From Shigella phage ESh28: a stretch of 64,000 nucleotides of DNA. Made by a program: the position numbers and the translations under genes. Shown here piece after piece: positions 5,177 through 61,957 of the stretch. The notes beneath the pieces were generated by a model, which worked only from the letters and a program-made list of their open reading frames with translations, did no database searches and was not told where the DNA came from. The first letter of the stretch is position 1. Each line of letters opens with the position of its first letter. The stretch is from the sequence record ON528738, one strand, 5' to 3'.

Positions 5177-5206
5177 GTTTACTTTTCCTCTTGACTGTGG
5201 TATAAT
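5177..5206 (+). promoter_or_regulatory. T4-type early promoter
   Basis: GTTTAC, spacer, TGTGGTATAAT just upstream of regB. Confidence 0.6.
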
Positions 5207-5233
5207 TTTTCTATCAGTTAAGAGGAGAATAAC

Positions 5234-5695
5234 ATGACTATCAATACAGAAGTTTTTATCCGTCGAAATAAGCTCCGTCGTCACTTTGAGTCGGAGTTTC
5301 GTCAAATTAACAATGAGATTCGTGAGGCATCAAAAGCAGCAGGGGTCTCATCGTTTCATCTAAAATATTCTCAGCATCTTCTTGATCGTGCAATTCAACG
5401 GGAGATTGATGAGACATATGTTTTTGAATTATTCCATAAAATAAAAGACCATGTTTTAGAAGTTAATGAATTCCTGAGTATGCCTCCACGTCCTGACATT
5501 GACGAGGATTTTATTGATGGGGTTGAATATCGTCCTGGACGTTTAGAAATCACAGATGGAAATCTTTGGCTTGGATTTACAGTTTGTAAACCTAATGCGA
5601 AGTTCAAAGACCCGTCACTTCAGTGCAGGATGGCAATTATCAATAGTCGCCGTTTACCAGGAAAGGCTTCTAAAGCAGTAATTAAAACTCAATGA
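5234..5695 (+). CDS. regB: RegB site-specific endoribonuclease
   Basis: 153 aa, N terminus MTINTEVFIRRNKLRRHFESEFRQINNEIRE as in T4 RegB; strong SD. Confidence 0.85.
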   Translation: MTINTEVFIRRNKLRRHFESEFRQINNEIREASKAAGVSSFHLKYSQHLLDRAIQREIDETYVFELFHKIKDHVLEVNEFLSMPPRPDIDEDFIDGVEYRPGRLEITDGNLWLGFTVCKPNAKFKDPSLQCRMAIINSRRLPGKASKAVIKTQ

Positions 5696-9342: not shown

Positions 9343-9366
9343 AGTCTCCTTCGGGAGACTTTTTTC
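9343..9366 (+). terminator. rho-independent terminator
   Basis: AGTCTCC-TTCG-GGAGACT hairpin followed by T tract. Confidence 0.7.
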
Positions 9367-9375
9367 ATTTTACCG

Positions 9376-9405
9376 GTTTACTTTCCGTTTGAGCTGTGGT
9401 ACTAT
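9376..9405 (+). promoter_or_regulatory. T4-type early promoter
   Basis: GTTTAC ... TGGTACTATAC with shared leader ACAACTATC. Confidence 0.6.
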
Positions 9406-9433
9406 ACAACTATCGGATAAAGAGGAGAACATC

Positions 9434-9622
9434 ATGAAAATTGAAGCACTCAATCAAGAAGGAAATATCTACGTCATCATTAATGGTGATTTTTTCGTCG
9501 ACATGGATGAAGTTACTAGTGAAGAACTTGTAGAACTTCTTAAGAAACGTTATAATATGTGTGATGAAGTTGCAACTCATATGGCGTGTGCAATATTCTC
9601 TCTTTCATATGTGGTGGAATAA
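9434..9622 (+). CDS. hypothetical small protein
   Basis: ATG after AGAGGAG SD (Met 16 of tracked ORF). Confidence 0.45.
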
Positions 9623-10165: not shown

Positions 10166-10196
10166 GTTTACAAGTTGGCAAGGTTATGGTATAGTA
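10166..10196 (+). promoter_or_regulatory. T4-type early promoter with stem-loop around -10
   Basis: GTTTAC ... TATGGTATAGT; imperfect inverted repeat flanks the -10. Confidence 0.55.
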
Positions 10197-10223
10197 ATCT
10201 TGTCAACTGCCAAGGAGAAGAGA

Positions 10224-10328
10224 ATGAAAGTTTTGTTTGTTGTGTATGTGATGATTCAATATAATTACCCAATGTTTACTTATAATCTGGTGAACAACAT
10301 TATTGATATTATTCAAAGGAGTATGTAA
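10224..10328 (+). CDS. possible small hydrophobic peptide (34 aa)
   Basis: AAGGAGAAG SD then ATG; stop overlaps start of next gene. Confidence 0.3.
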   Translation: MKVLFVVYVMIQYNYPMFTYNLVNNIIDIIQRSM

Positions 10329-13318: not shown

Positions 13319-13320
13319 TA

Positions 13321-13345
13321 GGGAGCCTTCGGGCTCCCTTTTTTA
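13321..13345 (+). terminator. rho-independent terminator
   Basis: GGGAGCC-TTCG-GGCTCCC hairpin plus T tract. Confidence 0.7.
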
Positions 13346-13368
13346 TTTCAAAAATTTTTCACAAAGTT

Positions 13369-13398
13369 GTTTACAAGCATAAAGCTTTATGGTACTAT
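13369..13398 (+). promoter_or_regulatory. T4-type early promoter with conserved leader cassette
   Basis: A/T-rich UP, GTTTAC, TATGGTACTATAC, then leader ACAACTATCAACTGATACGGATTTGGAGAATAAAATG. Confidence 0.6.
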
Positions 13399-13432
13399 AC
13401 AACTATCAACTGATACGGATTTGGAGAATAAA

Positions 13433-14401
13433 ATGAAAACTGTAACTATCAATAAGGGTATCTACTTCGGTAAAGAAATCTCTGGAACTTTTGAGCTCTT
13501 AGGCGAATGGTTCCCAGATAATGCTCCGGTAGATGCACAAGGAGATGGTAAAGTTTTTGTTGAAATTGACGGTAAGCGTCGCGGTGTTTGGGTTTACAAA
13601 TCAGACATTTCATATGATGGTGTAAAAGTTGAAGAAGTTAAAGAATCATATGAAGATATGAAAACCCGCATTAATAAAAGATTTAATGTTATGGGAATGA
13701 TGACGAATGGTATTATTAACGGAAACATTCGTTCATTAATTATCTCTGGTGCGGCGGGTATTGGTAAAACGTATTCTTTAGATAAAGCTTTAAATAAAGC
13801 AAATGATATTGGATACATTGAATATAAAAGCATTAACGGTAAAATCTCTGGTATCGGTCTTTATGAACAGCTTTGGAATAATCGTGAAGAGAATTCTGTC
13901 CTTTTGATTGATGATGTGGATGTTTTCTCTGATATGGACATTCTTAATCTTCTAAAAGCTGCTCTGGACACTGGAGAGACCCGTAAAGTCTGCTGGAGCA
14001 CTGCATCTTCTTACTTAGAAGAAAAAGGCATTGAGCGTGAGTTTGAATTTAAAGGAACGATTGTTTTTATCACAAACGTTGACATTGACCGCGAATTAGA
14101 CCGTGGTACTAAACTTGCTCCGCATTTACAAGCATTAGTGTCCCGCTCAGTTTATTTGGATTTGGGTGTTCACACTAATGAAGAAATTATGGTCAGGGTT
14201 GAAGATGTTATTCTTTCAACTGACATGATGCAAAAGCGCGGTCTTTCTGATGAAGAAACTTATAAAGCATTATCATGGATGAAAGTCAATGTTAATCGTT
14301 TACGCAATGTTTCACTGCGTACTGCACTTTATCTTGCTGACTTTATTATGACCGACAAAAATGGTTGGGAAGAAATTGCTGAGGTTACTCTTCTGAAATA
14401 A
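13433..14401 (+). CDS. AAA+ family ATPase
   Basis: Walker A GAAGIGKT and Walker B VLLIDDVD; start ATG is the terminal ATG of the leader cassette. Confidence 0.6.
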   Translation: MKTVTINKGIYFGKEISGTFELLGEWFPDNAPVDAQGDGKVFVEIDGKRRGVWVYKSDISYDGVKVEEVKESYEDMKTRINKRFNVMGMMTNGIINGNIRSLIISGAAGIGKTYSLDKALNKANDIGYIEYKSINGKISGIGLYEQLWNNREENSVLLIDDVDVFSDMDILNLLKAALDTGETRKVCWSTASSYLEEKGIEREFEFKGTIVFITNVDIDRELDRGTKLAPHLQALVSRSVYLDLGVHTNEEIMVRVEDVILSTDMMQKRGLSDEETYKALSWMKVNVNRLRNVSLRTALYLADFIMTDKNGWEEIAEVTLLK

Positions 14402-14499: not shown

Positions 14500-14805
14500 A
14501 TGATGTTATACTCAAAGGCTCGTGAAATTTATGAAACTAAAATTAAAGACGCGGTTCATCAGTTCGCAACGACAATGCGTTGGACAAATGACTGGGAATA
14601 CTCCAAGAATCATAAGAAGCCCTTGGTGACAAGAAAGGCTCATATATTAGTGTTAATAGACCGTGAGCAGATTAAAGCCCGAGAAGCCCTCCAGAATCAT
14701 AAAAAGGCTGCCTTTGAATGGTTTATGGATAACACTGCTCCTGAGACTAAGAAAGCAGTGAGCGCTTGGTTCAGTGGAAAAAATTGTGAAAGAAGTTTCT
14801 TTTAG
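14500..14805 (+). CDS. hypothetical protein
   Basis: GGAGG then ATGATG; start placed at internal Met of tracked ORF. Confidence 0.4.
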   Translation: MMLYSKAREIYETKIKDAVHQFATTMRWTNDWEYSKNHKKPLVTRKAHILVLIDREQIKAREALQNHKKAAFEWFMDNTAPETKKAVSAWFSGKNCERSFF

Positions 14806-14807
14806 TT

Positions 14808-14837
14808 GTTTACAAGACCGTTCCTCTGTGGTACTAT
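14808..14837 (+). promoter_or_regulatory. T4-type early promoter with conserved leader cassette
   Basis: GTTTAC ... TGTGGTACTATACAACTATCAACTACGGAGG. Confidence 0.55.
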
Positions 14838-14865
14838 ACAACTATCAACTACGGAGGAACAGAAA

Positions 14866-15393
14866 ATGAATGCTAAAGATATTTTCAACTTGGTAAACTA
14901 CAATGATGGTAAATTTAAATCTGAAGCTCAAAGCAAGTTCTTTAATGATGTCTCAATCGGTGGTGAAATCACGGTTGATGGAGGACAAATTTACAAATCC
15001 CGTTGGAATTGGATCGTTATTATCGATGAGATTGGTATTGTAGAAATTTACAAGAATACGAATAAAAATCGTACATTACACTGGTCTCGTGATACTAACG
15101 AACAGTACAAAAAGGATAAAGCATCTAAATTATCTCGTGTAACTCAAGAAGATATTGAGTTCATCAAGAAAGATATTTTGATGTATGATAACTTAATTGC
15201 TGAAGAGCAAGCTGTTATTGATAAATTTGACGAGATTAAAGCTTCTCGTGAAATTCCTGATTTTATGAAAGAATCAGTAAATGAACGATACACTCTCATT
15301 TCAGAGCGTATTGAAACTTACAAAAAGCAAAGAGCTGAACGCCAAAATACTCTTCGGAAGTTTGAAGAACGGTTAAAGACGGTACTCGCATAA
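14866..15393 (+). CDS. hypothetical protein with C-terminal coiled coil (family member 0)
   Basis: C-terminal heptad-like ...ERIETYKKQRAERQNTLRKFEERLKTVLA; ATG after GGAGG. Confidence 0.5.
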   Translation: MNAKDIFNLVNYNDGKFKSEAQSKFFNDVSIGGEITVDGGQIYKSRWNWIVIIDEIGIVEIYKNTNKNRTLHWSRDTNEQYKKDKASKLSRVTQEDIEFIKKDILMYDNLIAEEQAVIDKFDEIKASREIPDFMKESVNERYTLISERIETYKKQRAERQNTLRKFEERLKTVLA

Positions 15394-16761: not shown

Positions 16762-17790
16762 ATGAAAACTCGTTCTCAAATTGAAGATATAGTTCGTAAT
16801 GCCAGCTATACTCGTGATGTTATGACATTTTTGTGCCAAAATAATTTAGACCCTGATAAAGTTAATCGTGATATTCATCACTTTAAGTATACGAATAGCA
16901 GTGAATGGGTGCGTAATTTTAGTAAAGCAGGGTATATTACGCAAATGACTGCTCGTGAACAGCTCACCGATTTCTGTAAAACTATTGATTATAAAAATCC
17001 TTTATTTGTTCAAGGCGTTGGTCAGAGTAAGGTTGATTTATCAACAGGATTTTTTAATCCAAATCATTATCGTCTTGAATGGAGATTTATTGCTCTATTC
17101 CGTAAACAATTAAAGCAAATTTTGTCTACAGCTAGTCGATTAAAAGGTTCTAATATTAACTTAAAGAATCTGAAATTTGATGGTTATACTCTTCAAATGG
17201 AAGTAAGACCATCTAAAGAAAATAATAGAACTGCACGAATTAGCTTTAAACCTAATACAAAAAATTCTCTTTCAATTTGTGAATGTCTTAAATCACAGTT
17301 GACAGAAGCATTTAAGTATATGGATGTTGTTGCTGCTGTTCAATCTAAGATTTTACCTCGTTTTGAACGATTTAAGTTAGATACAACATCATATGAACTT
17401 GATATGATCGTTTCATTTAAATACGATTTTTTGAGAAAGGACGAAGTCCCGCAAGAGAAAAAGCAGGAAGTGCAAGATAACTTAAATTTAAATTTATCCA
17501 ATTACTTATCAAACGATCCTAAATTTTGGATGTATAGCTCAAGCAATATAGATGCATGTAAACTTAATAAAGTGAGTTTTCTTCCTACTGAAAATTCAAA
17601 TTTTAAACCTGTAGAAAAATGGCACGCTGACGCGATTGAGAAGTCTCTTAAGGCAGTAGATGATGAACTCGTTAAAGCGACCAATGAAGTGCTAGAAGCT
17701 GAAAAGGTGTTAGAACAAGCTCAGTCAAGGGTTCAAAATCTGACAAAGCAACGTTCTAAACTGAACAATGCACTAAATGCACTGAACTAG
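16762..17790 (+). CDS. hypothetical protein with C-terminal coiled coil (family member 2)
   Basis: 342 aa; C terminus ...VLEAEKVLEQAQSRVQNLTKQRSKLNNALNALN. Confidence 0.5.
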   Translation: MKTRSQIEDIVRNASYTRDVMTFLCQNNLDPDKVNRDIHHFKYTNSSEWVRNFSKAGYITQMTAREQLTDFCKTIDYKNPLFVQGVGQSKVDLSTGFFNPNHYRLEWRFIALFRKQLKQILSTASRLKGSNINLKNLKFDGYTLQMEVRPSKENNRTARISFKPNTKNSLSICECLKSQLTEAFKYMDVVAAVQSKILPRFERFKLDTTSYELDMIVSFKYDFLRKDEVPQEKKQEVQDNLNLNLSNYLSNDPKFWMYSSSNIDACKLNKVSFLPTENSNFKPVEKWHADAIEKSLKAVDDELVKATNEVLEAEKVLEQAQSRVQNLTKQRSKLNNALNALN

Positions 17791-17819
17791 TTTACTTTGC
17801 CACAAGGATGTGGTATAAT
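17790..17819 (+). promoter_or_regulatory. T4-type early promoter (near-identical copy at 61688)
   Basis: AGTTTACTTTGCCACAAGGATGTGGTATAAT; small hairpin CCACA/TGTGG before -10. Confidence 0.6.
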
Positions 17820-25495: not shown

Positions 25496-25525
25496 TGTTT
25501 ACAACAAGTTCAAACCGTGGTATTA
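25496..25525 (+). promoter_or_regulatory. T4-type early promoter
   Basis: TTTTCACAAAGTTGTTTAC ... GTGGTATTATTAAT. Confidence 0.55.
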
Positions 25526-26158: not shown

Positions 26159-26359
26159 ATGAATCCTGAATCTAAATTATCGCAACGAATTGCTGAAGCT
26201 CGTCGCCAGTTCTTTGAAAATATGATAGCCCAAGGTATTGATGACGAAGTTTTTCTAAACTGGTTTTGGAATCACAAATATTCAAGTTGCTCAGGAGCAA
26301 TATTAATATCAGCCGCAATGATGTACGAAGGCTGGAAGGGTGCCAAAAAGTTTAGCTAA
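26159..26359 (+). CDS. hypothetical small protein
   Basis: Tracked ORF followed by terminator. Confidence 0.4.
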   Translation: MNPESKLSQRIAEARRQFFENMIAQGIDDEVFLNWFWNHKYSSCSGAILISAAMMYEGWKGAKKFS

Positions 26360-26378
26360 GGGCTTCGGCCCTTTTTGG
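26358..26378 (+). terminator. rho-independent terminator
   Basis: AGGGC-TTCG-GCCCT hairpin plus T tract. Confidence 0.65.
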
Positions 26379-28794: not shown

Positions 28795-29997
28795 ATGAAA
28801 GTATGTATTTTTATGGCTCGAGGTCTTGAAGGTTGTGGTGTAACAAAATTCTCACTCGAGCAACGTGATTGGTTTATTAAAAATGGTCATGAAGTGACTT
28901 TGGTTTATGCTAAAGATAAATCATTTACTCGTAATTGCGCGCATGATTATAAATCATTTTCAATTCCGGTTTTATTGGCAAAAGAATATGATAAAACACT
29001 TAAGCTGGTAAATGATTGTGATATTCTAATTATCAATTCAGTTCCTGCTACTTCGGTTGAAGAAGACACTATTAATAACTATAAAAAAATTATTGATAAC
29101 ATTAAACCTTCTGTTCGTGTTGTAGTTTATCAGCATGACCATTCTTCTCTTTCTTTGCGTCGAAATTTGGGATTAGAAGAAACTGTTCGTCGAGCTGATG
29201 TTATTTTTAGCCATTCTGATAATGGCGATTTTAATAAAGTTCTGATGAAAGAATGGTATCCAGAAACTGTTTCTCTGTTTGATGATATTGAAGAAGCACC
29301 GACAGTATATAACTTTCAGCCTCCTATGGATATTGCGAAGGTTCGGTCAACCTACTGGAAAGATGTTTCTGAAATTAACATGAATATCAACCGTTGGATT
29401 GGTCGTACGACTACATGGAAAGGTTTTTATCAGATGTTTGATTTTCACGAAAAACATCTTAAACCTGCAGGACTAAGTACTATTATGGAAGGTCTGGAAC
29501 GTTCTCCAGCGTTCATTCCCATTAAAGAAAAAGGAATTCCATACGAGTATTATCGTCTTCATCAAGTAGACCAAATTAAAATTGCTCCTAATTTGCCAAC
29601 GCAAATTCTTGACCGTTATGTAAATAGCGAAATGCTTGAACGCATGAGTAAATCCGGATTTGGTTATCAGCTGAGTAAGTTGGACAAAAAATATCTACAA
29701 CGTTCTTTAGAATATACTCATCTCGAGCTTGGTGCATGTGGAACAATTCCGGTATTTTGGAAATCTACTGGCGAAAATTTAAAATTCCGTGTTGATAATA
29801 CTCCTTTGACCTCGCATGATAGCGGTATCATTTGGTTTGATGAAAATGACATGGAATCAACATTTGAACGTATTAAAGAACTGTCATCTGACCGAACTCT
29901 TTATGACCGCGAACGCGAAAAAGCTTATGAATTTTTGTATCAGCATCAAGATTCAAGCTTCTGCTTTAAAGAACAGTTTGACATTATTACAAAATAA
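28795..29997 (+). CDS. agt: DNA alpha-glucosyltransferase
   Basis: 400 aa; MKVCIFMARGLEGCGVTKFSLEQRDWFIKNGHEVTLVYAKDKSF matches T4 alpha-gt. Confidence 0.9.
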   Translation: MKVCIFMARGLEGCGVTKFSLEQRDWFIKNGHEVTLVYAKDKSFTRNCAHDYKSFSIPVLLAKEYDKTLKLVNDCDILIINSVPATSVEEDTINNYKKIIDNIKPSVRVVVYQHDHSSLSLRRNLGLEETVRRADVIFSHSDNGDFNKVLMKEWYPETVSLFDDIEEAPTVYNFQPPMDIAKVRSTYWKDVSEINMNINRWIGRTTTWKGFYQMFDFHEKHLKPAGLSTIMEGLERSPAFIPIKEKGIPYEYYRLHQVDQIKIAPNLPTQILDRYVNSEMLERMSKSGFGYQLSKLDKKYLQRSLEYTHLELGACGTIPVFWKSTGENLKFRVDNTPLTSHDSGIIWFDENDMESTFERIKELSSDRTLYDREREKAYEFLYQHQDSSFCFKEQFDIITK

Positions 29998-30016
29998 AGG
30001 GCTTCGGCCCTTTAGC
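29998..30016 (+). terminator. rho-independent terminator
   Basis: AAGGGC-TTCG-GCCCTT hairpin. Confidence 0.7.
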
Positions 30017-34017: not shown

Positions 34018-34704
34018 ATGAAACTGTCTAAAGATACTACTGCTCTGCTTAAAAATTTCGCTACTATTAACTCCGGTATTATGCTTAAATCCGGTCAATT
34101 TATTATGACTCGCGCAGTTAATGGTACAACTTATGCGGAAGCAAATATTTCTGACGTTATTGATTTTGATGTAGCAATTTACGATTTAAACGGTTTTCTC
34201 GGTATTCTGTCTCTAGTTAATGATGACGCAGAAATTTCCCAGTCAGAAGATGGAAATATTAAAATTGCTGATGCTCGCTCAACAATTTTTTGGCCAGCAG
34301 CCGATCCGAGTACAGTAGTTGCTCCTAATAAACCGATTCCATTCCCGGTAGCATCTGTTGTTACTGAAATTAAAGCTGAAGACCTTCAACAACTGTTGCG
34401 TGTATCTCGTGGTCTACAAATTGATACAATTGCTATCACGGTAAAAGAAGGTAAAATCGTAATTAACGGTTTTAATAAAGTAGAAGATTCTGCTTTGACT
34501 CGTGTTAAATATTCTTTGACTCTTGGTGATTATGATGGTGAAAATACATTTAATTTCATTATCAATATGGCAAATATGAAAATGCAACCAGGAAATTATA
34601 AACTTCTGCTCTGGGCAAAAGGTAAACAAGGTGCTGCTAAATTTGAAGGTGAACACGCGAATTATGTAGTAGCTCTTGAAGCTGATTCTACCCACGATTT
34701 TTAA
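34018..34704 (+). CDS. 45: sliding clamp gp45
   Basis: 228 aa; MKLSKDTTALLKNFATINSGIMLKSGQFIMTRAVNGTTYAEANISD matches T4 gp45. Confidence 0.95.
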   Translation: MKLSKDTTALLKNFATINSGIMLKSGQFIMTRAVNGTTYAEANISDVIDFDVAIYDLNGFLGILSLVNDDAEISQSEDGNIKIADARSTIFWPAADPSTVVAPNKPIPFPVASVVTEIKAEDLQQLLRVSRGLQIDTIAITVKEGKIVINGFNKVEDSALTRVKYSLTLGDYDGENTFNFIINMANMKMQPGNYKLLLWAKGKQGAAKFEGEHANYVVALEADSTHDF

Positions 34705-34706
34705 TA

Positions 34707-34726
34707 GAGGGCTTCGGCCCTTTATA
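34707..34726 (+). terminator. rho-independent terminator/attenuator
   Basis: GAGGGC-TTCG-GCCCTT hairpin. Confidence 0.65.
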
Positions 34727-34755
34727 ATTTACACTAAAATTTGAATGAGGAAATT

Positions 34756-35715
34756 ATGATTACCGTAAATGAAAAAGAACACATTCTTGAACAGAAATAT
34801 CGTCCATCTACTATCGATGAATGTATTCTTCCCGCCTTTGATAAAGAAACCTTTAAATCTATTACAAGTAAAGGTAAGATTCCACATATTATTCTTCATT
34901 CTCCTTCTCCAGGAACAGGTAAAACAACTGTAGCAAAAGCATTGTGTCATGATGTAAATGCTGATATGATGTTTGTGAATGGATCAGATTGTAAAATTGA
35001 TTTCGTTCGTGGTCCTTTGACTAATTTTGCCAGCGCCGCTTCATTTGATGGTCGTCAAAAAGTAATCGTTATTGATGAATTTGACCGCTCAGGATTAGCA
35101 GAATCTCAGCGACATCTTCGTTCCTTTATGGAAGCTTATAGTTCGAACTGTAGTATTATTATTACTGCTAACAATATTGATGGTATTATTAAACCACTTC
35201 AGTCACGCTGCCGAGTTATTACGTTCGGTCAACCGACCGATGAAGATAAAATTGAAATGATGAAGCAGATGATTCGTCGATTGACTGAAATCTGTAAACA
35301 TGAAGGTATTGCTATAGCTGATATGAAAGTTGTAGCAGCTTTGGTTAAAAAGAATTTTCCTGATTTTCGTAAAACTATTGGCGAGCTCGATAGTTATTCA
35401 TCTAAAGGTGTTTTGGATGCTGGTATTTTATCACTGGTTACTAACGATCGTGGTGCTATTGATGATGTTCTTGAGTCTCTCAAAAATAAAGATGTTAAAC
35501 AACTCAGAGCTTTAGCACCAAAATATGCAGCTGATTATTCGTGGTTCGTGGGTAAACTTGCCGAAGAAATCTATACACGTGTAACACCACAGAGTATTAT
35601 TCGTATGTACGAAATTGTCGGCGAAAATAATCAGTATCATGGAATTGCGGCTAATACTGAATTGCATCTAGCTTATCTTTTCATTCAGTTAGCATGTGAA
35701 ATGCAGTGGAAGTGA
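34756..35715 (+). CDS. 44: clamp loader large subunit gp44
   Basis: 319 aa from ATG (MITVNEKEH...) after GAGG; Walker A GTGKTT; tracked ORF begins at upstream TTG. Confidence 0.95.
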
Positions 35716-36281: not shown

Positions 36282-36650
36282 ATGATTGAAATTACTCTTA
36301 AAAAACCTGAAGATTTTCTGAAAGTAAAAGAAACTTTGACTCGTATGGGAATTGCTAATAATAAAGATAAAGTTCTGTATCAGTCCTGTCATATTCTTCA
36401 GAAAAAAGGACTATACTATATCGTTCATTTTAAAGAAATGCTTCGTATGGATGGACGTCAAGTTGAAATGACAGAAGAAGATGAAGTTCGTCGTGATTCG
36501 ATTGCATGGCTGTTAGAAGATTGGGGACTGATTGAAATCGTCCCTGGTCAAAGAACTTTTATGAAAGATTTAACTAATAACTTCCGAGTTATTTCTTTTA
36601 AACAAAAACATGAATGGAAACTCGTTCCTAAATATACGATTGGTAATTAA
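36282..36650 (+). CDS. regA: translational repressor RegA
   Basis: 122 aa; MIEITLKKPEDFLKVKETLTRMGIANNKDKVLYQSCHILQKKGLYYIVHF matches T4 RegA. Confidence 0.9.
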   Translation: MIEITLKKPEDFLKVKETLTRMGIANNKDKVLYQSCHILQKKGLYYIVHFKEMLRMDGRQVEMTEEDEVRRDSIAWLLEDWGLIEIVPGQRTFMKDLTNNFRVISFKQKHEWKLVPKYTIGN

Positions 36651-36652
36651 GC

Positions 36653-36676
36653 AAGGGGCTTCGGCCCCTTATTTGG
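36653..36676 (+). terminator. rho-independent terminator
   Basis: AAGGGGC-TTCG-GCCCCTT hairpin then T-rich. Confidence 0.7.
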
Positions 36677-39425: not shown

Positions 39426-39438
39426 TAGAATAAATCTA

Positions 39439-39461
39439 GGGACCTCCAGGTCCCTTTTTCA
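39439..39461 (+). terminator. rho-independent terminator
   Basis: GGGACC-TCCA-GGTCCC hairpin plus T tract. Confidence 0.7.
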
Positions 39462-39542
39462 TACAAGTAATATAAATCTATACTTATGAAAAAGAGATGA
39501 TTCTGGACCCTTTGGATTCCCTAAAAATTTTTTCACAAAACC

Positions 39543-39572
39543 GTTTACATCCCTGTTCTTCTATGGTACTAT
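39543..39572 (+). promoter_or_regulatory. T4-type early promoter with conserved leader cassette
   Basis: UP element, GTTTAC, TATGGTACTATAC, leader ACAACTATCAACTACTGATACGGATTTGGAGAATGAAATG. Confidence 0.6.
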
Positions 39573-39609
39573 ACAACTATCAACTACTGATACGGATTTG
39601 GAGAATGAA

Positions 39610-39990
39610 ATGAAAATCGCTATTTTGGTTATTGCATTAGGTCTTACTGGTTGTGTAGCTCAAGGACCGGTAGTAAATCAGTCTGATGTAGGAAAAATTG
39701 TAAACTGTTCAAGCAAGTTTTATAATCCTAATGTCAAGTGTTATAAAGAAGCTCCAAAGCAGACAGTAGAACAAATGCAGGCGAATTTTGACGAAGCTAT
39801 TCGTCCAGATGAATCTGCTCAAGCATATCGTAATTCGGATGTAATTACACGCGAAGAAAAAATTGAAAACTACTGTGCAGAACTTTGGGCAAATTGGGCT
39901 AATAATTATCAATGGCGTACAGGTAAAAATGCTCCGATGGAGTATGTAGTGAATTCTTATAATTCATGTGTAAAAAATTTGACTAAGTGA
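39610..39990 (+). CDS. predicted lipoprotein
   Basis: Signal peptide with lipobox L-T-G-C (MKIAILVIALGLTGCVAQ); start is the cassette ATG after GGAG. Confidence 0.55.
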   Translation: MKIAILVIALGLTGCVAQGPVVNQSDVGKIVNCSSKFYNPNVKCYKEAPKQTVEQMQANFDEAIRPDESAQAYRNSDVITREEKIENYCAELWANWANNYQWRTGKNAPMEYVVNSYNSCVKNLTK

Positions 39991-43587: not shown

Positions 43588-45015
43588 GTGGTAGAAATTA
43601 TTCTTTCTCATCTCATATTTGATCAAGCTTATTTTTCAAAAGTTTGGCCATATATGGATTCAGAATATTTTGAAAGTGGTCCAGCTAAAAATACGTTCAA
43701 ATTAATTAAATCTCATGTTAATGAGTATCATAGCGTTCCATCTATTAATGCGTTAAATGTTGCATTAGAAAATAGTTCATTTACTGAAACGGAATATTCT
43801 GGTGTAAAAACACTTATTTCAAAACTAGCCGATTCTCCAGAAGACCACAGCTGGTTAATAAAAGAAACAGAAAAATATGTTCAGCAAAGGGCGATGTTTA
43901 ATGCTACGTCTAAAATAATCGAAATTCAAACTAATGCTGAGCTTCCTCCGGAAAAACGAAATAAGAAAATGCCGGATGTTGGTGCTATTCCTGACATCAT
44001 GCGTCAAGCATTATCAATTTCATTTGATAGCTACGTTGGTCATGATTGGATGGATGACTACGAAGCACGCTGGCTATCTTATATGAATAAAGCTCGTAAG
44101 GTTCCATTTAAACTCAGAATTCTAAACAAAATTACTAAAGGCGGAGCTGAGACTGGAACACTGAACGTTTTAATGGCTGGTGTTAACGTTGGTAAATCAT
44201 TAGGACTTTGTTCATTAGCAGCAGATTATTTGCAGCTTGGTCATAACGTTCTTTATATCTCCATGGAAATGGCAGAAGAAGTCTGTGCTAAGCGTATTGA
44301 TGCTAATATGCTTGATGTTTCTCTTGATGACATTGATGATGGGCATATTTCTTACGCTGAGTATAAAGGAAAAATGGAAAAATGGCGCGAGAAATCTACT
44401 CTCGGTCGTTTAATCGTTAAACAGTATCCTACTGGTGGAGCAGACGCTAATACATTCAGGTCTCTCTTGAACGAATTGAAGCTCAAAAAGAATTTTGTTC
44501 CAACAATCATTATTGTCGACTATCTAGGTATTTGTAAATCTTGCCGCATTAGAGTTTATTCAGAAAATAGTTACACAACTGTTAAAGCTATTGCAGAGGA
44601 ATTGCGTGCTCTGGCTGTTGAAACCGAAACTGTTCTTTGGACTGCAGCACAGGTCGGTAAACAAGCTTGGGACTCTTCTGATGTTAACATGAGCGATATT
44701 GCAGAATCTGCCGGTCTTCCAGCAACGGCTGATTTTATGCTTGCGGTCATTGAAACCGAGGAGCTAGCAGCTGCTGAACAACAACTTATTAAGCAAATCA
44801 AATCACGATATGGCGATAAGAATAAGTGGAATAAGTTTTTGATGGGTGTTCAAAAGGGAAATCAGAAATGGGTAGAAATTGAACAAGATTCTACTCCAAC
44901 CGAAGTGAGTGAAGTAGCAGGTTCACAACAGATTCAGGCTGAACAGAATCGCTATCAAAGAAACGAATCAGCTCGAGCTCAGTTAGATGCTTTGGCAAAT
45001 GAATTAAAATTTTAG
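43588..45015 (+). CDS. 41: replicative helicase gp41 (DnaB-like)
   Basis: 475 aa; Walker A GVNVGKSLG; GTG start; near-identical to T4 gp41. Confidence 0.95.
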   Translation: MVEIILSHLIFDQAYFSKVWPYMDSEYFESGPAKNTFKLIKSHVNEYHSVPSINALNVALENSSFTETEYSGVKTLISKLADSPEDHSWLIKETEKYVQQRAMFNATSKIIEIQTNAELPPEKRNKKMPDVGAIPDIMRQALSISFDSYVGHDWMDDYEARWLSYMNKARKVPFKLRILNKITKGGAETGTLNVLMAGVNVGKSLGLCSLAADYLQLGHNVLYISMEMAEEVCAKRIDANMLDVSLDDIDDGHISYAEYKGKMEKWREKSTLGRLIVKQYPTGGADANTFRSLLNELKLKKNFVPTIIIVDYLGICKSCRIRVYSENSYTTVKAIAEELRALAVETETVLWTAAQVGKQAWDSSDVNMSDIAESAGLPATADFMLAVIETEELAAAEQQLIKQIKSRYGDKNKWNKFLMGVQKGNQKWVEIEQDSTPTEVSEVAGSQQIQAEQNRYQRNESARAQLDALANELKF

Positions 45016-45044
45016 TTTACAAGCTGACAAGACTATGGTATAGT
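45015..45044 (+). promoter_or_regulatory. T4-type early promoter with -10 inside stem-loop
   Basis: GTTTAC; inverted repeat ACAAGACT / AGTCTTGT flanks TATGGTATAGT. Confidence 0.55.
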
Positions 45045-45073
45045 AGTCTTGTTGGTTAAATGAGGAGATTGTT

Positions 45074-45256
45074 ATGGAATTGGTAAAGGTAGTTTTTATG
45101 GGGTGGTTTAAGAATGAAAGTATGTTTACTAAAGAAATCACAATGATGAAAGATGACGTTCAATGGGCTACTACTCAATATGCTGAAGTTAATAAAGCAT
45201 TAGTTAAAGCTTTCATTGATGACAAGAAAGTATGTGAAGTGGATTGCCGAGGATAA
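45074..45256 (+). CDS. dmd: Dmd antitoxin (discriminator of mRNA degradation)
   Basis: 60 aa, MELVKVVFMGWFKNESMFTKEITMMKDDVQWATTQYAEV as recalled for T4 Dmd; position just after 41. Confidence 0.8.
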   Translation: MELVKVVFMGWFKNESMFTKEITMMKDDVQWATTQYAEVNKALVKAFIDDKKVCEVDCRG

Positions 45257-45870: not shown

Positions 45871-46503
45871 ATGATTTATTATATGCACAAAAATCCACCG
45901 TTTAAATACGGTAAATTTCCTGATGCACAATGTTATAACATAACGCCTGATGAAAATAACCGTGGATATCTTATTGGCACAATTTTTGTAATTGTTAAAG
46001 ATAACGAAATCGTTGCCTGGGCAGATTTTAAAGGTACAACATATGATGTTAATCCGGTGCCTTTCACATATTACAATTTAATGGATTTGGCATACGATTA
46101 TAATTGGTTTAATCATGACACGTTGGCTCATATTGAAGGTGTAGGATTTGACATCTCTTATTCTAGCTACTCATTGTGTCCTATGAGTCGGGCTCATAAA
46201 GAACCTGAATATTTTTCATTTAGGAAACGTGTAAACTTTAAACGCAACACAGAGTATGTCGGTGGAATCTTTGTTAAAGATAATCGAATTACTCGCATTA
46301 TTTATCCTTTGGGCTGTGGTCAAAAAGATATTGATGTTGATTTAGACTTTACTGAAAACATCATTAATCATATTGCTTCTGTGTATTTTGGTATCGATCA
46401 CAAAATTGTAATATGTGGATATGAATTACCGTTTGAAGAACAACCTAAAGTAAAAGTTTCTATTGACGATCAAATTTTTAATGCTTTTATGAATAAAGGT
46501 TAA
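45871..46503 (+). CDS. hypothetical protein (61.2-position), shares C-terminal tail with next ORF
   Basis: 210 aa; C terminus ...SIDDQIFNAFMNKG. Confidence 0.5.
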   Translation: MIYYMHKNPPFKYGKFPDAQCYNITPDENNRGYLIGTIFVIVKDNEIVAWADFKGTTYDVNPVPFTYYNLMDLAYDYNWFNHDTLAHIEGVGFDISYSSYSLCPMSRAHKEPEYFSFRKRVNFKRNTEYVGGIFVKDNRITRIIYPLGCGQKDIDVDLDFTENIINHIASVYFGIDHKIVICGYELPFEEQPKVKVSIDDQIFNAFMNKG

Positions 46504-46507
46504 TATG
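46459..46507 (+). repeat. direct repeat copy 1 (about 49 bp)
   Basis: TCTATTGACGATCAAATTTTTAATGCTTTTATGAATAAAGGTTAATATG, repeated at 46817 with 3 mismatches. Confidence 0.75.
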
Positions 46508-46861
46508 TATAGTTCTGAATTTTCATATTTAAAAATGGAAAAAATTTCATACGATTTTATAGATGAAAAGGTTTATTACAGTTTCCATGAACCACGTTTT
46601 AATAGTGAGGTTGGGTTTATTGTAGTAAAAGACAATTTCATTTTAAAGATATATTCGGCATTAAAGGATTTTCACTACGAAAATATTAACCTAAAATTTG
46701 ATAAAGAAAACGTTCGTAATTGTGCAGTAACAATTACAGGAAATAAAGGCACATGTGTTATGCTATCTGATGAAATTAATGATTTGCTAAATGATGCCGA
46801 AAAGGTTGCTATTCCATCTATTGATGACCAAATTTTTAATGCTTTTATGAATAGAGGTTAA
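46505..46861 (+). CDS. hypothetical protein flanked by direct repeats
   Basis: 118 aa; C terminus ...SIDDQIFNAFMNRG encoded by repeat copy 2. Confidence 0.45.
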   Translation: MYSSEFSYLKMEKISYDFIDEKVYYSFHEPRFNSEVGFIVVKDNFILKIYSALKDFHYENINLKFDKENVRNCAVTITGNKGTCVMLSDEINDLLNDAEKVAIPSIDDQIFNAFMNRG

Positions 46862-46865
46862 TATG
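46817..46865 (+). repeat. direct repeat copy 2 (about 49 bp)
   Basis: TCTATTGATGACCAAATTTTTAATGCTTTTATGAATAGAGGTTAATATG. Confidence 0.75.
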
Positions 46866-47027
46866 AAAACATATAAAGAATTTATTAAAGAAGATATGGT
46901 AGCTGGAGATTCAGGTGGTAATCCTGAAAATATCTCTACTGGAACAACATCAGGTGCTGTAGTAAATAAAGGTCCTGAACAGATTCCTAAAAAGAAAAAA
47001 GAGGAATCTAAAGAAAAAGAAGAGTAA
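46863..47027 (+). CDS. small ORF with capsid-targeting-sequence-like N terminus
   Basis: 54 aa; MKTYKEFIKED resembles internal protein CTS; GAGGTTAATATG start; low-complexity Lys/Glu tail. Confidence 0.35.
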   Translation: MKTYKEFIKEDMVAGDSGGNPENISTGTTSGAVVNKGPEQIPKKKKEESKEKEE

Positions 47028-56508: not shown

Positions 56509-56540
56509 TGTTTACTTCCTCGGTTAGTTGTGGTATTATA
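56509..56540 (+). promoter_or_regulatory. T4-type early promoter
   Basis: AAAAAGTTGTTTAC ... GTGGTATTATAAC. Confidence 0.55.
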
Positions 56541-56566
56541 ACACCATAGCTACTGAGGATAATAAA

Positions 56567-57079
56567 ATGAAAATTTATCGTGTTGAATCATCGTTTAGCG
56601 CATTAAATGATGATAGTGGTATAGTGAAAATTAGGCAAGAGTTGTGCGTTCAATCAACTCCTTATCGTGGATTTGATTCTATGAAAACTCGAACTTGGCT
56701 AAAATTTTGCGGTATTAATTCATCGTCATTTCATCATCATAGCGATAATTATGAAAGCCATGAAAGTATTCCTATTCCACACGATGATAAGTTATTAGTT
56801 GAAAATGCTAATGATGTTATTAAAACTAAATGGAATAAAGATTATTCACAATTTGAAAATTATATTCCGTTGTGGCTTATTGCATTATATCATTTTGCTT
56901 TCGCTAGTGAATATGATATGATGAGATGGTTCACCCGAGAAGAGCGTGAAGACTTAAAAGATCGTGGAATGTACATTGCGATTTATGAAGTTCCTGAAGA
57001 TGAAGTTATCATTGGCGGGCACCAAGTAATGTTCCGTAAATCCCATGCTGAACTTGTAGATTTTATTGAAATGAGATAA
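56567..57079 (+). CDS. hypothetical protein
   Basis: ATG after GAGGATAATAAA (Met 14 of tracked ORF). Confidence 0.45.
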   Translation: MKIYRVESSFSALNDDSGIVKIRQELCVQSTPYRGFDSMKTRTWLKFCGINSSSFHHHSDNYESHESIPIPHDDKLLVENANDVIKTKWNKDYSQFENYIPLWLIALYHFAFASEYDMMRWFTREEREDLKDRGMYIAIYEVPEDEVIIGGHQVMFRKSHAELVDFIEMR

Positions 57080-58192: not shown

Positions 58193-58207
58193 AGTTTAAA
58201 ATTTTTT

Positions 58208-58262
58208 CATAAAACTATATACATCAGTAGTTGATTATGGTACTATATCAATATCAACTACT
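58208..58262 (+). promoter_or_regulatory. promoter stem-loop cassette (PeSL-like)
   Basis: Perfect 11-bp inverted repeat CAGTAGTTGAT / ATCAACTACTG flanking TATGGTACTATAT; followed by GGAGAATAAAATG. Confidence 0.5.
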
Positions 58263-58364
58263 GATATAGAAAACAACTTGGAGAATAAAATGGATAATTC
58301 GTTAAAGGTGCTGATACTCTTCTGAAACGCATCGCTCCAATGTTCAATTAATGAGGAAATTGTA

Positions 58365-59541: not shown

Positions 59542-59802
59542 ATGAAATATGTTAATCGTTCTATCGCGGCATTAGTATTAGCAGTATCTTTAGTAGGATG
59601 TACTGATGCTGATAATGCAACCAAAGTTTTGTCTTCAAGTGGTTTTACTAATATTGAAATCACTGGATATAATTGGTTCGGTTGCTCTGAAAATGATTTC
59701 CAGCATACTGGATTTCGTGCTATTGGACCTACCGGGCAGAAAGTAGAAGGAACAGTATGTTCTGGTCTATTCTTCAAGGATTCGACTATCCGTTTTAAAT
59801 AA
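59542..59802 (+). CDS. predicted lipoprotein
   Basis: Signal peptide with lipobox LVGC. Confidence 0.5.
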   Translation: MKYVNRSIAALVLAVSLVGCTDADNATKVLSSSGFTNIEITGYNWFGCSENDFQHTGFRAIGPTGQKVEGTVCSGLFFKDSTIRFK

Positions 59803-59820
59803 AAGGCCTTCGGGCCTTTA
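59802..59820 (+). terminator. rho-independent terminator
   Basis: AAGGCC-TTCG-GGCCTT hairpin. Confidence 0.7.
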
Positions 59821-59871: not shown

Positions 59872-61689
59872 ATGATTAAGAATGAAATTAAAATTCTGAG
59901 CGATATTGAACATATCAAAAAGCGTAGCGGCATGTACATTGGTTCTTCTGCTAATGAAATGCATGAGCGCTTTCTGTTTGGTAAATGGGAAAGTGTTCAG
60001 TATGTACCTGGTCTTGTTAAGCTTATTGATGAAATTATCGATAACTCAGTAGATGAAGGTATTCGTACTAAGTTTAAATTCGCAAATAAAATTAATGTTA
60101 CTATTAAAAACAATCAAGTAACAGTTGAAGATAACGGTCGTGGTATTCCGCAAGCGATGGTTAAAACACCTACCGGTGAAGAAATTCCTGGTCCTGTTGC
60201 TGCCTGGACTATTCCAAAAGCAGGTGGTAACTTCGGTGATGATAAAGAACGCGTCACTGGTGGTATGAATGGTGTTGGTTCTAGTTTGACAAATATTTTT
60301 TCTGTGATGTTTGTCGGTGAAACTGGCGACGGTCAAAATAATATTGTAGTTCGTTGTTCAAATGGCATGGAAAATAAATCGTGGGAAGATATTCCTGGAA
60401 AATGGAAAGGAACTCGCGTTACTTTCATTCCTGATTTTATGTCATTTGAAACTAATGAGCTATCTCAAGTTTATCTTGACATTACGCTAGATCGTCTTCA
60501 GACACTTGCAGTAGTTTATCCTGATATTCAATTTACCTTTAATGGTAAAAAGGTTCAGGGTAATTTTAAGAAATACGCACGCCAATATGATGAGCATGCT
60601 ATCGTTCAAGAACAAGAAAACTGTTCTATTGCGGTTGGTCGTTCACCGGATGGTTTTCGTCAATTAACATACGTCAATAACATTCATACTAAGAATGGTG
60701 GCCATCACATTGACTGTGTTATGGATGATATTTGTGAAGACCTTATTCCACAAATCAAACGTAAATTTAAAATTGACGTAACTAAAGCACGTGTTAAAGA
60801 ATGTTTGACTATCGTTATGTTTGTTCGTGATATGAAAAACATGCGATTTGACTCTCAAACTAAAGAGCGTCTGACTTCTCCATTTGGTGAAATCCGTAGT
60901 CATATTCAGCTTGATGCTAAAAAGATTTCACGTGCTATTTTAAATAATGAAGCGATTTTAATGCCAATTATTGAAGCTGCCTTGGCTCGTAAATTGGCGG
61001 CAGAAAAAGCAGCAGAAACTAAAGCAGCTAAAAAGGCTTCTAAAGCTAAGGTTCATAAACATATCAAAGCGAATCTTTGTGGTAAAGATGCTGACACTAC
61101 TCTTTTCTTGACTGAGGGTGATTCTGCTATCGGATATCTTATTGATGTTCGTGATAAAGAACTTCACGGTGGTTATCCATTGCGTGGTAAAGTTCTCAAC
61201 AGTTGGGGTATGTCATATGCTGATATGCTTAAAAACAAAGAACTGTTTGATATTTGCGCAATCACTGGATTAGTTCTTGGTGAAAAAGCTGAAAACTTGA
61301 ATTATCATAATATTGCTATTATGACTGATGCTGACCATGATGGTCTAGGAAGCATTTATCCTTCTCTGCTCGGATTTTTTAGTAATTGGCCAGAATTGTT
61401 TGAGCAAGGACGAATTCGCTTTGTCAAAACTCCTGTAATCATCGCTCAGGTCGGTAAAAAACAAGAATGGTTTTATACAGTCGCTGAATATGAGAGTGCT
61501 AAAGATGCTCTACCTAAACATAGCATCCGTTATATTAAGGGACTTGGCTCTTTGGAAAAATCTGAATATCGTGAGATGATTCAGAACCCAGTATATGATG
61601 TTGTTAAACTTCCTGAGAACTGGAAAGAGCTTTTTGAAATGCTCATGGGAGATAATGCTGACCTTCGCAAAGAATGGATGAGCCAGTAG
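59872..61689 (+). CDS. 39: DNA topoisomerase II large (ATPase, GyrB-like) subunit, single-ORF form
   Basis: 605 aa continuous ORF; T4 splits this into 39 plus 60 (with bypass), so this is the fused T2/T6-like form. Confidence 0.9.
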   Translation: MIKNEIKILSDIEHIKKRSGMYIGSSANEMHERFLFGKWESVQYVPGLVKLIDEIIDNSVDEGIRTKFKFANKINVTIKNNQVTVEDNGRGIPQAMVKTPTGEEIPGPVAAWTIPKAGGNFGDDKERVTGGMNGVGSSLTNIFSVMFVGETGDGQNNIVVRCSNGMENKSWEDIPGKWKGTRVTFIPDFMSFETNELSQVYLDITLDRLQTLAVVYPDIQFTFNGKKVQGNFKKYARQYDEHAIVQEQENCSIAVGRSPDGFRQLTYVNNIHTKNGGHHIDCVMDDICEDLIPQIKRKFKIDVTKARVKECLTIVMFVRDMKNMRFDSQTKERLTSPFGEIRSHIQLDAKKISRAILNNEAILMPIIEAALARKLAAEKAAETKAAKKASKAKVHKHIKANLCGKDADTTLFLTEGDSAIGYLIDVRDKELHGGYPLRGKVLNSWGMSYADMLKNKELFDICAITGLVLGEKAENLNYHNIAIMTDADHDGLGSIYPSLLGFFSNWPELFEQGRIRFVKTPVIIAQVGKKQEWFYTVAEYESAKDALPKHSIRYIKGLGSLEKSEYREMIQNPVYDVVKLPENWKELFEMLMGDNADLRKEWMSQ

Positions 61690-61718
61690 TTTACTTTACC
61701 ACAAGGATGTGGTATAAT
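61688..61718 (+). promoter_or_regulatory. T4-type early promoter (near-identical copy of 17790)
   Basis: AGTTTACTTTACCACAAGGATGTGGTATAAT. Confidence 0.6.
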
Positions 61719-61743: not shown

Positions 61744-61947
61744 ATGAAATCATATAAAGTAAATTTAGAACTTTTTGATAAAGCAGTTCATCGAGAATAT
61801 AGAATCATTCAACGCTTTTTCGATATGGGAGAAGCCGAAGAATTTAAAAACCGCTTTAAAGATATTAGAGATAAAATTCAATCCGACACCGCAACTAAAG
61901 ATGAACTACTAGAAGTTGCTGAAGTTATTAAACGCAATATGAATTAA
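61744..61947 (+). CDS. hypothetical small protein (rIIA-upstream)
   Basis: Tracked ORF with GAGGATATTAGAATG. Confidence 0.45.
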
Positions 61948-61957
61948 TGAGGAAATT

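Follow-up and report, generated by a model that had tools for sequence, protein, structure and literature searches.

Early genes of bacteriophage T4 are transcribed from promoters of the 'UP/-35/TGn/-10' type, which are used by the unmodified sigma70 polymerase of the host (PMC2988021; PMC1524935). In the T4/PST group, composite promoter-early stem-loop elements (PeSLs) have been defined by an AT-rich region, the motif TTTACW-N17-TAYWAT, a 3' Shine-Dalgarno sequence (SD) with ATG, and an upstream stem-loop (PMC4122927). To the PeSL authors, the elements of T-even phages are analogous, not homologous, to the PeSLs of RB49. For T4 itself, a differential RNA sequencing (dRNA-seq) preprint gives 150 phage transcription start sites. 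Here, a repeated promoter-leader cassette of this kind was analyzed in a 64,000-nt window (the whole stretch of DNA studied, to which all positions refer) of Shigella phage ESh28, sequence record ON528738. The repetition is confirmed: five copies were found, named by position relative to T4 after the genes that they precede (mobD.5, nrdC.10, nrdC.8, imm.1 and cef).

By nucleotide comparison, the window is assigned to Tequatrovirus. The region round the cassettes is 95-98% identical to hundreds of genomes of this genus, and the 141 nt round copy 1 are 100% identical in Shigella phage ESh24. The whole window is colinear with T4 from ~68,572 to 4,000 on the T4 reverse strand, so that its + strand is the T4 early-transcription strand. 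An inventory of early-type promoters gave ~16 credible ones in the window, all on the + strand, and ~11 of these lie outside the cassette family.

In each copy, GTTTAC(A/T), replaced by TATACA at cef, is followed by a 17-bp spacer with TGG at its end and by TACTAT, and the predicted +1 is an A 7 nt downstream; written in PeSL notation, TTTAC(A/T)-17-TACTAT was found in four copies and TATACA-17-TACTAT in the cef copy. UP sequences of the AAAAATTTTTTCACAAAAC type precede the nrdC.10, imm.1 and cef promoters, a T-run/UP precedes that of mobD.5, and the UP of nrdC.8 is weaker. The 22-mer TGGTACTATACAACTATCAACT occurs exactly at 13390, 14829 and 39564 and with 3 mismatches at 58238 and 9397 (chance expectation 0, from 100 dinucleotide-preserving shuffles), and the pattern GTTTAC-N-TGGTAYTATA matched at 9376, 13369, 14808 and 39543 plus one unrelated promoter. 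A repeat search placed the five copies in one family (D1, 69 nt) and also returned a 31-nt leader repeat, 13409-13439 vs 39586-39616, at 97% identity. Among the ~16 window early promoters, TACTAT followed by ACAACTATC was found only in the five copies. The 15 nt past the -10 are identical in three copies, compared with a mean of 32% and a maximum of 53% for pairs of non-family promoters. The first-pass annotation had listed four copies (13369-13435, 14808-14868, 39543-39612 and, in degenerate form, 58208-58292); all four are where it placed them, and a fifth at 9397, before mobD.5, had been overlooked. Its caution that the copies might be no more similar than unrelated early promoters is not borne out. 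The genes downstream are unrelated, as it had proposed (blastp E > 1 mutually; Pfam families different or none). A literature search with exact cassette sequence strings gave no relevant match.

The copies are clearly related yet mosaic, and their spacers are locus-specific. The nrdC.10 and imm.1 copies have the whole leader in common, up to and including ATGAAAA, whereas the mobD.5 and nrdC.8 copies have 3' leader parts of their own; a common leader, as claimed earlier, therefore describes the first pair, and nrdC.8 matches only as far as ...CAACTAC, after which its own SD begins. Likewise, the module was not copied as a unit: UP/-35 and the -10/start region are common, but the 17-bp spacers are ~42% identical within the family vs 45% among unrelated promoters (the within-family means are underestimates, as the cef copy was anchored 1 nt off in that comparison). 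The UP/-35 type AAAATTTTTTCACAAA(G/C)NTGTTTACA is also carried by the non-family promoters at 25498 and 52653. An SD and a start codon stand at the 3' end of each cassette. The cassette ATG is the start of a real gene at nrdC.10 and imm.1, in line with the first-pass annotation, and likewise at mobD.5 and nrdC.8; the fifth, in the motB-cef spacer, opens an 11-codon remnant. In T4, a further copy precedes e.8, just beyond the window. Coordinates are collected in the table.

Table. Cassette copies, associated hairpins and leader ends, and a separate promoter pair in the window of ESh28.
Feature	Position	Strand	Details
Intrinsic terminator hairpin adjoining the 5' side of the mobD.5 cassette	9343..9360	+	AGTCTCC-TTCG-GGAGACT and T-run
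mobD.5 cassette (copy 5)	9361..9436	+	-35 TTTACT 9377-9382; TGG and -10 TACTAT 9400-9405; ACAACTATC; predicted +1 9412; SD GAGGAG 9422-9427; ATG 9434, mobD.5 orthologue of 62 aa
Intrinsic terminator closing the nrdC.11 unit, adjoining the nrdC.10 cassette	13320..13339	+	8-bp stem, 6 GC, T-run
nrdC.10 cassette	13346..13435	+	UP AAAAATTTTTCACAAAGTTG; -35 TTTACA 13370-13375; -10 TACTAT 13393-13398; predicted +1 13405; unstructured leader; ATG 13433
nrdC.10 SD region	13423..13433	+	GGAGAATAAAA, perfect RegB/S1 consensus GG*AGRAYARAA; conserved to ~69% protein identity
nrdC.8 cassette	14785..14868	+	-35 TTTACA 14809-14814; -10 TACTAT 14832-14837; predicted +1 14844; own SD GGAGG 14853-14857; ATG 14866; no GC-rich terminator upstream
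nrdC.8 hairpin of read-through RNA, spacer x leader/SD	14820..14860	+	-10 in loop; -19.4 kcal/mol, z -3.8; covaries in nrdC.8 orthologues
Intrinsic terminator after gene 43	39438..39455	+	88 nt 5' of the imm.1 cassette -35
imm.1 cassette	39520..39612	+	-35 TTTACA 39544-39549; -10 TACTAT 39567-39572; predicted +1 39579; ATG 39610
imm.1 leader 3' end	39600-39610	+	GGAGAATGAAA, one mismatch to RegB consensus
motB/cef cassette	58194..58292	+	e.8-type leader; -35 variant TATACA 58218-58223; -10 TACTAT 58241-58246; predicted +1 58253; ATG 58290
cef-copy leader end	58280-58290	+	GGAGAATAAAA
cef-copy inverted repeat enclosing the -10	58215..58269	+	spacer ATCAGTAGTTGAT / leader ATCAACTACTGAT; -21.1 kcal/mol, z -5.8; identical in T4
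Remnant ORF behind the cef copy	58290..58325	+	11 codons; starts ATGGATAAT = first codons of e.8
Separate early promoter, nrdC.4	17788..17819	+	31/32 identical to 61687-61718, spacer included
Partner promoter before a 67-aa rIIA.1-like gene	61687..61718	+	ATG of the gene at 61744

The copies resemble published T4 early promoters (Hinton 2010, PMC2988021; Nolan et al. 2006, PMC1524935) in GTTTAC at -36 to -31, an A-rich UP, TGn and the -10, and differ from the published consensus by the added TACTAT-ACAACTATCAAC start region and the common leader. They also resemble the T4/PST PeSLs (Comeau, Arbiol & Krisch 2014, PMC4122927), being in the same phage group, with the same composite build and in hyperplastic early regions beside indels. 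The earlier label 'PeSL-like' was appropriate; an upstream terminator is present in three of the five copies. That study pooled all early-promoter cassettes, whereas a sub-family with identical -10/start region and partly identical leader was resolved here; in addition, two of the five copies have no upstream stem-loop and carry a spacer/leader hairpin instead. The cassettes are a sub-family of T4 early promoters with most of the defining features of T4/PST PeSLs, and because the concept has been published (2010-2014) the phenomenon is already known.

Use of a promoter-terminator cassette as portable homology is a likeness to the PeSLs of RB49 and phi1 (Arbiol et al. 2010, PMC2839356). Mini-circle crossovers in RB49 were mapped experimentally between the -10 and the SD/ATG, the zone in which several junctions described below fall, although RB49 PeSLs differ in having near-perfect TTGACA/TATAAT and G_n-loop-C_n stems (PMC2839356). 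In the RB49-like nrdC.10 loci (L067-L073, the most distant group), an inverted repeat at ~2390-2500 encloses the -35, with a T-run behind it, e.g. AAGGAGTG-TTTACAAGA-CACTCCTTTTTT; terminator and promoter overlap here, in contrast to the other genera, whose hairpins enclose the -10. The elements of T-even internal-protein (IP) loci (Repoila et al. 1994), as described in the papers that cite them, are similar in combining a repeated early promoter and leader, even first codons, with swappable small genes on the flanks; according to the same descriptions they are another sequence family, confined to IP loci. The IP-locus break of the window relative to T4 lies at the promoter at 2075 and not at the cassettes studied here.

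Of the GC-rich terminators, those of mobD.5 and nrdC.10 are directly adjacent to their cassettes. Upstream of the nrdC.8 copy only a weak AAAGA-AGTT-TCTTT hairpin was found, and upstream of the cef copy none. Folded from the predicted +1, the leaders were no more stable than shuffled sequences (z ~0) and should for that reason be accessible to ribosomes. RNA structure in the leader was ruled out on the same grounds as the cause of its conservation.

The copies are probably paralogous, and the cassette that they represent would be the T-even version of a PeSL, serving early-gene expression in Tequatrovirus. Its functional elements, which we infer from consensus, would be ordered as follows: often a terminator closing the upstream unit, then an A/T-rich UP, the -35 GTTTAC(A/T), a 17-bp spacer ending in TGG (extended -10), the -10 TACTAT, a family-specific start region ACAACT|ATCAAC, a short, unstructured, A-rich 5' untranslated region with the SD GGAG, and the ATG. 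Such a promoter would be fired by host sigma70 RNA polymerase straight after infection, and the open leader would allow efficient translation. The copies probably derive from each other by ectopic homologous recombination or gene conversion, with segments (UP/-35, -10/start region, leader 3' end) swapped as patches. All are direct repeats on the early strand, and as such they would offer portable homology for the insertion, deletion and replacement of genes, as the junctions in relatives suggest.

A typical Tequatrovirus genome has cassette matches at 7-9 places. In IMG/VR, a scan for the exact core returned 31 promoter-context copies in ~10 genomes (8 in one genome, all on one strand), before at least 12 different downstream genes including motA (Pfam MotA_activ + MotCF). 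Single cassettes were found in other genera, in PhAPEC2, STML-198 and Moon. That of PhAPEC2 (Mosigvirus) stands with an e.8 module amid RB69-like neighbours. In Salmonella phage STML-198 (Gelderlandvirus) a 59-aa gene separates the cassette from the nrdC.10 homologue, and 47 nt of -10 and leader are 95.7% identical to the window compared with 69-76% for the flanking genes.

At two loci, the endpoints of insertions lie within the cassette. The first is the nrdC.11/nrdC.10 junction, where a 39-bp direct repeat of T-run, UP and -35 (window 13336-13374) flanks a 0.58-kb module in phage BW-1; the module holds an alternative -10/leader and a split ADP-ribosyltransferase-like gene, followed by terminator, UP and -35. 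In KAW1E185 and at the loci L024 and L033, other inserts at this position join the cassette at the SD (13423) and past CTATCAA (13409). Some phages have, between nrdC.11 and the cassette of nrdC.10, a small gene of 162 aa with the annotation 'RNA polymerase ADP-ribosylase' and no Pfam match (L038, 1290-1774, in BW-1, split by a frameshift; L035, 997-1482, in STML-198); it is absent from the window and from T4. Between gene 43 and imm.1, an open reading frame (ORF) of 78-85 aa lies between cassette and imm.1 in several genomes (e.g. L016), with its junction at ATGAAAAT; spacer type and presence of this ORF78 occur in all four combinations, which indicates exchange within about 60 bp. In one genome the adjacent nrdC.10 and nrdC.8 promoters are jointly altered from ACAACT to TACCCT. 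Behind the remnant start at the cef copy, window 58299-58345 corresponds to the 3' end of an ORF of 89 aa (…KFAKGAATLLKRIAPLFN*), which an IMG/VR genome (L086, ~1010-1200) has intact upstream of cef; T4 and the window have the remnant only, which close relatives do not preserve as an ORF. By this comparison, the motB-cef copy is read as a footprint left when sequence at the cassette was deleted or replaced.

Several observations weigh against the proposed descent and exchange of the cassettes, or limit their extent. The transcription starts are predictions, not mapped ends. The IMG/VR copies were fetched with an exact 17-mer, so the invariance of that 17-mer is built into the search and cannot be used as evidence of conservation; conservation was judged on protein-anchored locus sets instead. 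No copy is a simple whole-block duplicate of another, as the unrelated spacers indicate, and the longest unbroken identities between copies are 22-31 nt, which is short for efficient homologous exchange according to T4 recombination work. Of 34 homology breakpoints between window and T4, two fall in early-promoter cassettes (1.1 expected, P = 0.3), both in the IP-locus promoter and none at the five copies. The chimeric cassette expected from tandem recombination of nrdC.10 with nrdC.8 (1,439 bp apart) was found in 0 of 506 phage records. The proposal that such modules drive shuffling is supported by the endpoints at nrdC.11/nrdC.10 and 43/imm.1, two of the five loci, and not by the two negative tests. 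Given the few T4 breakpoints, the missing chimera and the short identities, rearrangement at the cassettes is judged to be occasional rather than dominant.

The leader 3' ends were compared with GG*AGRAYARAA, the published consensus for strong cleavage by RegB/S1 (Durand et al., as quoted in PMC3014915). GGAGAATAAAA in the nrdC.10 and cef leaders matches it perfectly, with no other perfect match in the 64 kb; imm.1 has one mismatch, and nrdC.8 and mobD.5 have no match past GGAG. Like strong RegB/S1 sites (PMC3014915), these predicted sites lie in the unstructured, A-rich intergenic translation initiation region (TIR) of early genes. Against a general role, the perfect consensus is present in only two of the five copies, and two matches per 64 kb were equalled by 10% of shuffles. 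In a protein-anchored, unbiased set of 37 nrdC.10 loci (61-100% identity), GGAGAATAAAATG was kept down to ~69% aa identity, even where the first codons differ. This retention marks the segment as ancient, native to nrdC.10 and constrained.

In an alternative reading, the -10, start region and leader are kept by selection as the regulatory signal of an early-gene sub-class (initiation/escape behaviour, Alt responsiveness, early shut-off, or RegB/translation control), recombination being incidental. The deep conservation of GGAGAATAAAATG at nrdC.10, the RegB consensus match, the presence of the regulator gene motA in the family and the high identity of -10 and leader in STML-198 would all fit, and reviews describe early shut-off and Alt specificity as unexplained. 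However, identical 40-nt leaders before unrelated genes require common descent and not convergence, the leader varies past CTATC (8 leader types in the family), the palindrome and RegB consensus occur in some copies only, and the STML-198 cassette is equally well explained by recent transfer; this alternative is rather unlikely. The palindrome TATCA-N5-TGATA (~+1 to +15), found in the copies at imm.1, e.8, motA and cef with a second inverted copy in the cef spacer, could be the operator of a phage repressor or a stabilizing hairpin at the 5' end of the RNA, either of which would account for the conserved leader. As a general feature this was rejected and is very improbable, because the palindrome is absent from nrdC.8 and mobD.5 and its spacing is destroyed by a 3-nt deletion in nrdC.10; moreover, the 5' hairpin would have at most 4 bp, in leaders that fold no better than shuffles.

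Two further readings carry almost no weight. The occurrence of the same UP/-35 types at 25498 and 52653, and spacers as unlike each other as those of unrelated promoters, could suggest that the copies are generic T4 early-promoter consensus and nothing more, but this is refuted by the exact 22-mer in triplicate, the 31-nt leader repeat and the comparison past the -10. An autonomous mobile element, either like a miniature inverted-repeat transposable element (MITE) or as target or cargo of a homing endonuclease, might also be dispersed in multiple copies of one orientation with single copies in other genera; it is hardly credible here, as there are no terminal inverted repeats, no target-site duplications and no consistently linked endonuclease, and the junctions lie at varied internal points (UP/-35, after CTATCAA, SD, ATGAAAAT), a pattern typical of exchange driven by homology or microhomology.

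In the protein-anchored locus sets, the locus-specific spacers often form inverted repeats with the sequence past the -10, and their pairing was tested with non-cognate arm pairings as control. Cognate pairing averaged -10.1 kcal/mol vs -5.9 kcal/mol for non-cognate pairing, and 18 of 43 promoters across phages were below the non-cognate 5th percentile; in the window this held for 7 of 16 early promoters, the nrdC.8 and cef copies included (permutation P < 5e-5). The sense strand was more stable than the antisense strand by 5-12 kcal/mol in six of the seven, via G·U pairs, which points to RNA rather than DNA. Folds from -35 to ATG gave z of -3.5 to -6.2 for the promoters 2075, 5178, 10167, 14809 (nrdC.8), 45016 and 56511, and -5.8 for cef; for the nrdC.10, imm.1 and mobD.5 copies such folding was not significant and no hairpin of this kind was found. 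The non-family hairpins (2075-2140, 5178-5245, 10167-10232, 45016-45082 and 56511-56575) also have the -10 in the loop and no terminator upstream. The SD lies within the 3' arm at 2075, 5178, 14809 (nrdC.8) and 56511, whereas the arm stops short of it at cef, 10167 and 45016. Strong pairing was seen in none of 5 promoters preceded by a terminator vs 7 of 11 others (Fisher P ~0.03). Three different spacer/leader pairs occur among nrdC.8 orthologues, each self-complementary, and the same geometry with different arm sequences was found in other T4-like genera. The promoters 10166-10203 and 45015-45052 are 87% identical, spacer and start region included, and their arm differences preserve pairing (AGTTGGCAAGGTT/AATCTTGTCAACT vs AGCTGACAAGACT/AGTCTTGTTGGTT).

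As the 5' arm lies upstream of +1, folding is possible in read-through RNA alone; nrdC.8 RNA folded at 0 kcal/mol from +1, compared with the value in the table when the spacer arm was included. Where no terminator is present (nrdC.8, cef), the spacer is complementary to the cassette's own leader or SD, so that read-through RNA would fold over the -10 and the leader/SD, and RNA from the cassette's own promoter would lack the 5' arm and stay open. This recalls the TIR-masking hairpins of T4 e, soc, 49 and I-TevI (PMC3014915), in which the 5' arm precedes the start of an internal promoter and the SD is in the 3' arm, as at nrdC.8, 2075, 5178 and 56511; those belong to late gp55 promoters (PMC3014915), whereas here an early sigma70 promoter supplies the 5' arm from the spacer between its -35 and -10. 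We tentatively propose, as a possibility, that sigma70 early-promoter spacers of T4-like phages commonly encode a hairpin arm which forms only in read-through RNA and insulates the cassette translationally, as an alternative to a terminator. Each cassette would then be a self-contained, portable expression unit, with spacers that are locus-specific and co-evolving. No description of a spacer-encoded hairpin on early promoters was found in the literature searched, which did not cover older T4 work, and the hairpin pattern is the only part of these results that might be new.

Other repeats were recorded in the window. The near-identical promoter pair reported by the first-pass annotation at 17789-17819 and 61688-61718, separate from the cassettes, was recovered; the identity in the table spans -35, spacer and -10, and both flanks are unrelated. 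A 49-bp direct repeat (46459-46507 / 46817-46865, 94%) of a gene 3' end, SD and ATG flanks a 118-aa ORF (46505-46861) that has no T4 counterpart and looks like an insertion at a duplicated translation-initiation region without a promoter. Near-identical 31-nt gene starts at 2555-2585 and 46863-46893 encode MKTYQEFITE… (157 aa, internal-protein-like) and MKTYKEFIKE… (54 aa, at the position of T4 61.1), and resemble the capsid-targeting leader of internal proteins. Initiation regions and first codons at 34744-34789 and 61946-61991 are 83% identical (AATGAGGAAATTATGATTA…); the first is gene 44 by position, the second is presumably rIIA, going by the N-terminus of the T4 protein, and their common sequence may be translational-operator-like. 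GGGC-TTCG-GCCC tetraloop hairpins occupy intergenic sites at 26351-26374, 29990-30013, 34700-34723, 36647-36670 and 59796-59819; C(UUCG)G hairpins are classic T4 terminators or stabilizers.

ESh28 is one more T4-like genome in which a strong early promoter with its leader serves as a reusable expression unit and recombination patch in hyperplastic early regions. To this picture are added a fifth copy, the mosaic structure, the inclusion of motA and e.8 in the family, the RegB consensus in the leader, exactly placed junctions in relatives, two negative tests and the spacer/leader hairpin pattern. In practice, the cassette can be used for annotating early units and small ORFs, for predicting RegB-sensitive mRNAs and for spotting pseudogene footprints such as the motB-cef remnant. 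If functional, the hairpins would constitute an extra layer of translational insulation in T4 early control and a constraint on spacers that are usually treated as free sequence; if true, this reading would mean that the principle of e, soc, 49 and I-TevI, known from a few late promoters, also holds for a large part of the early ones.

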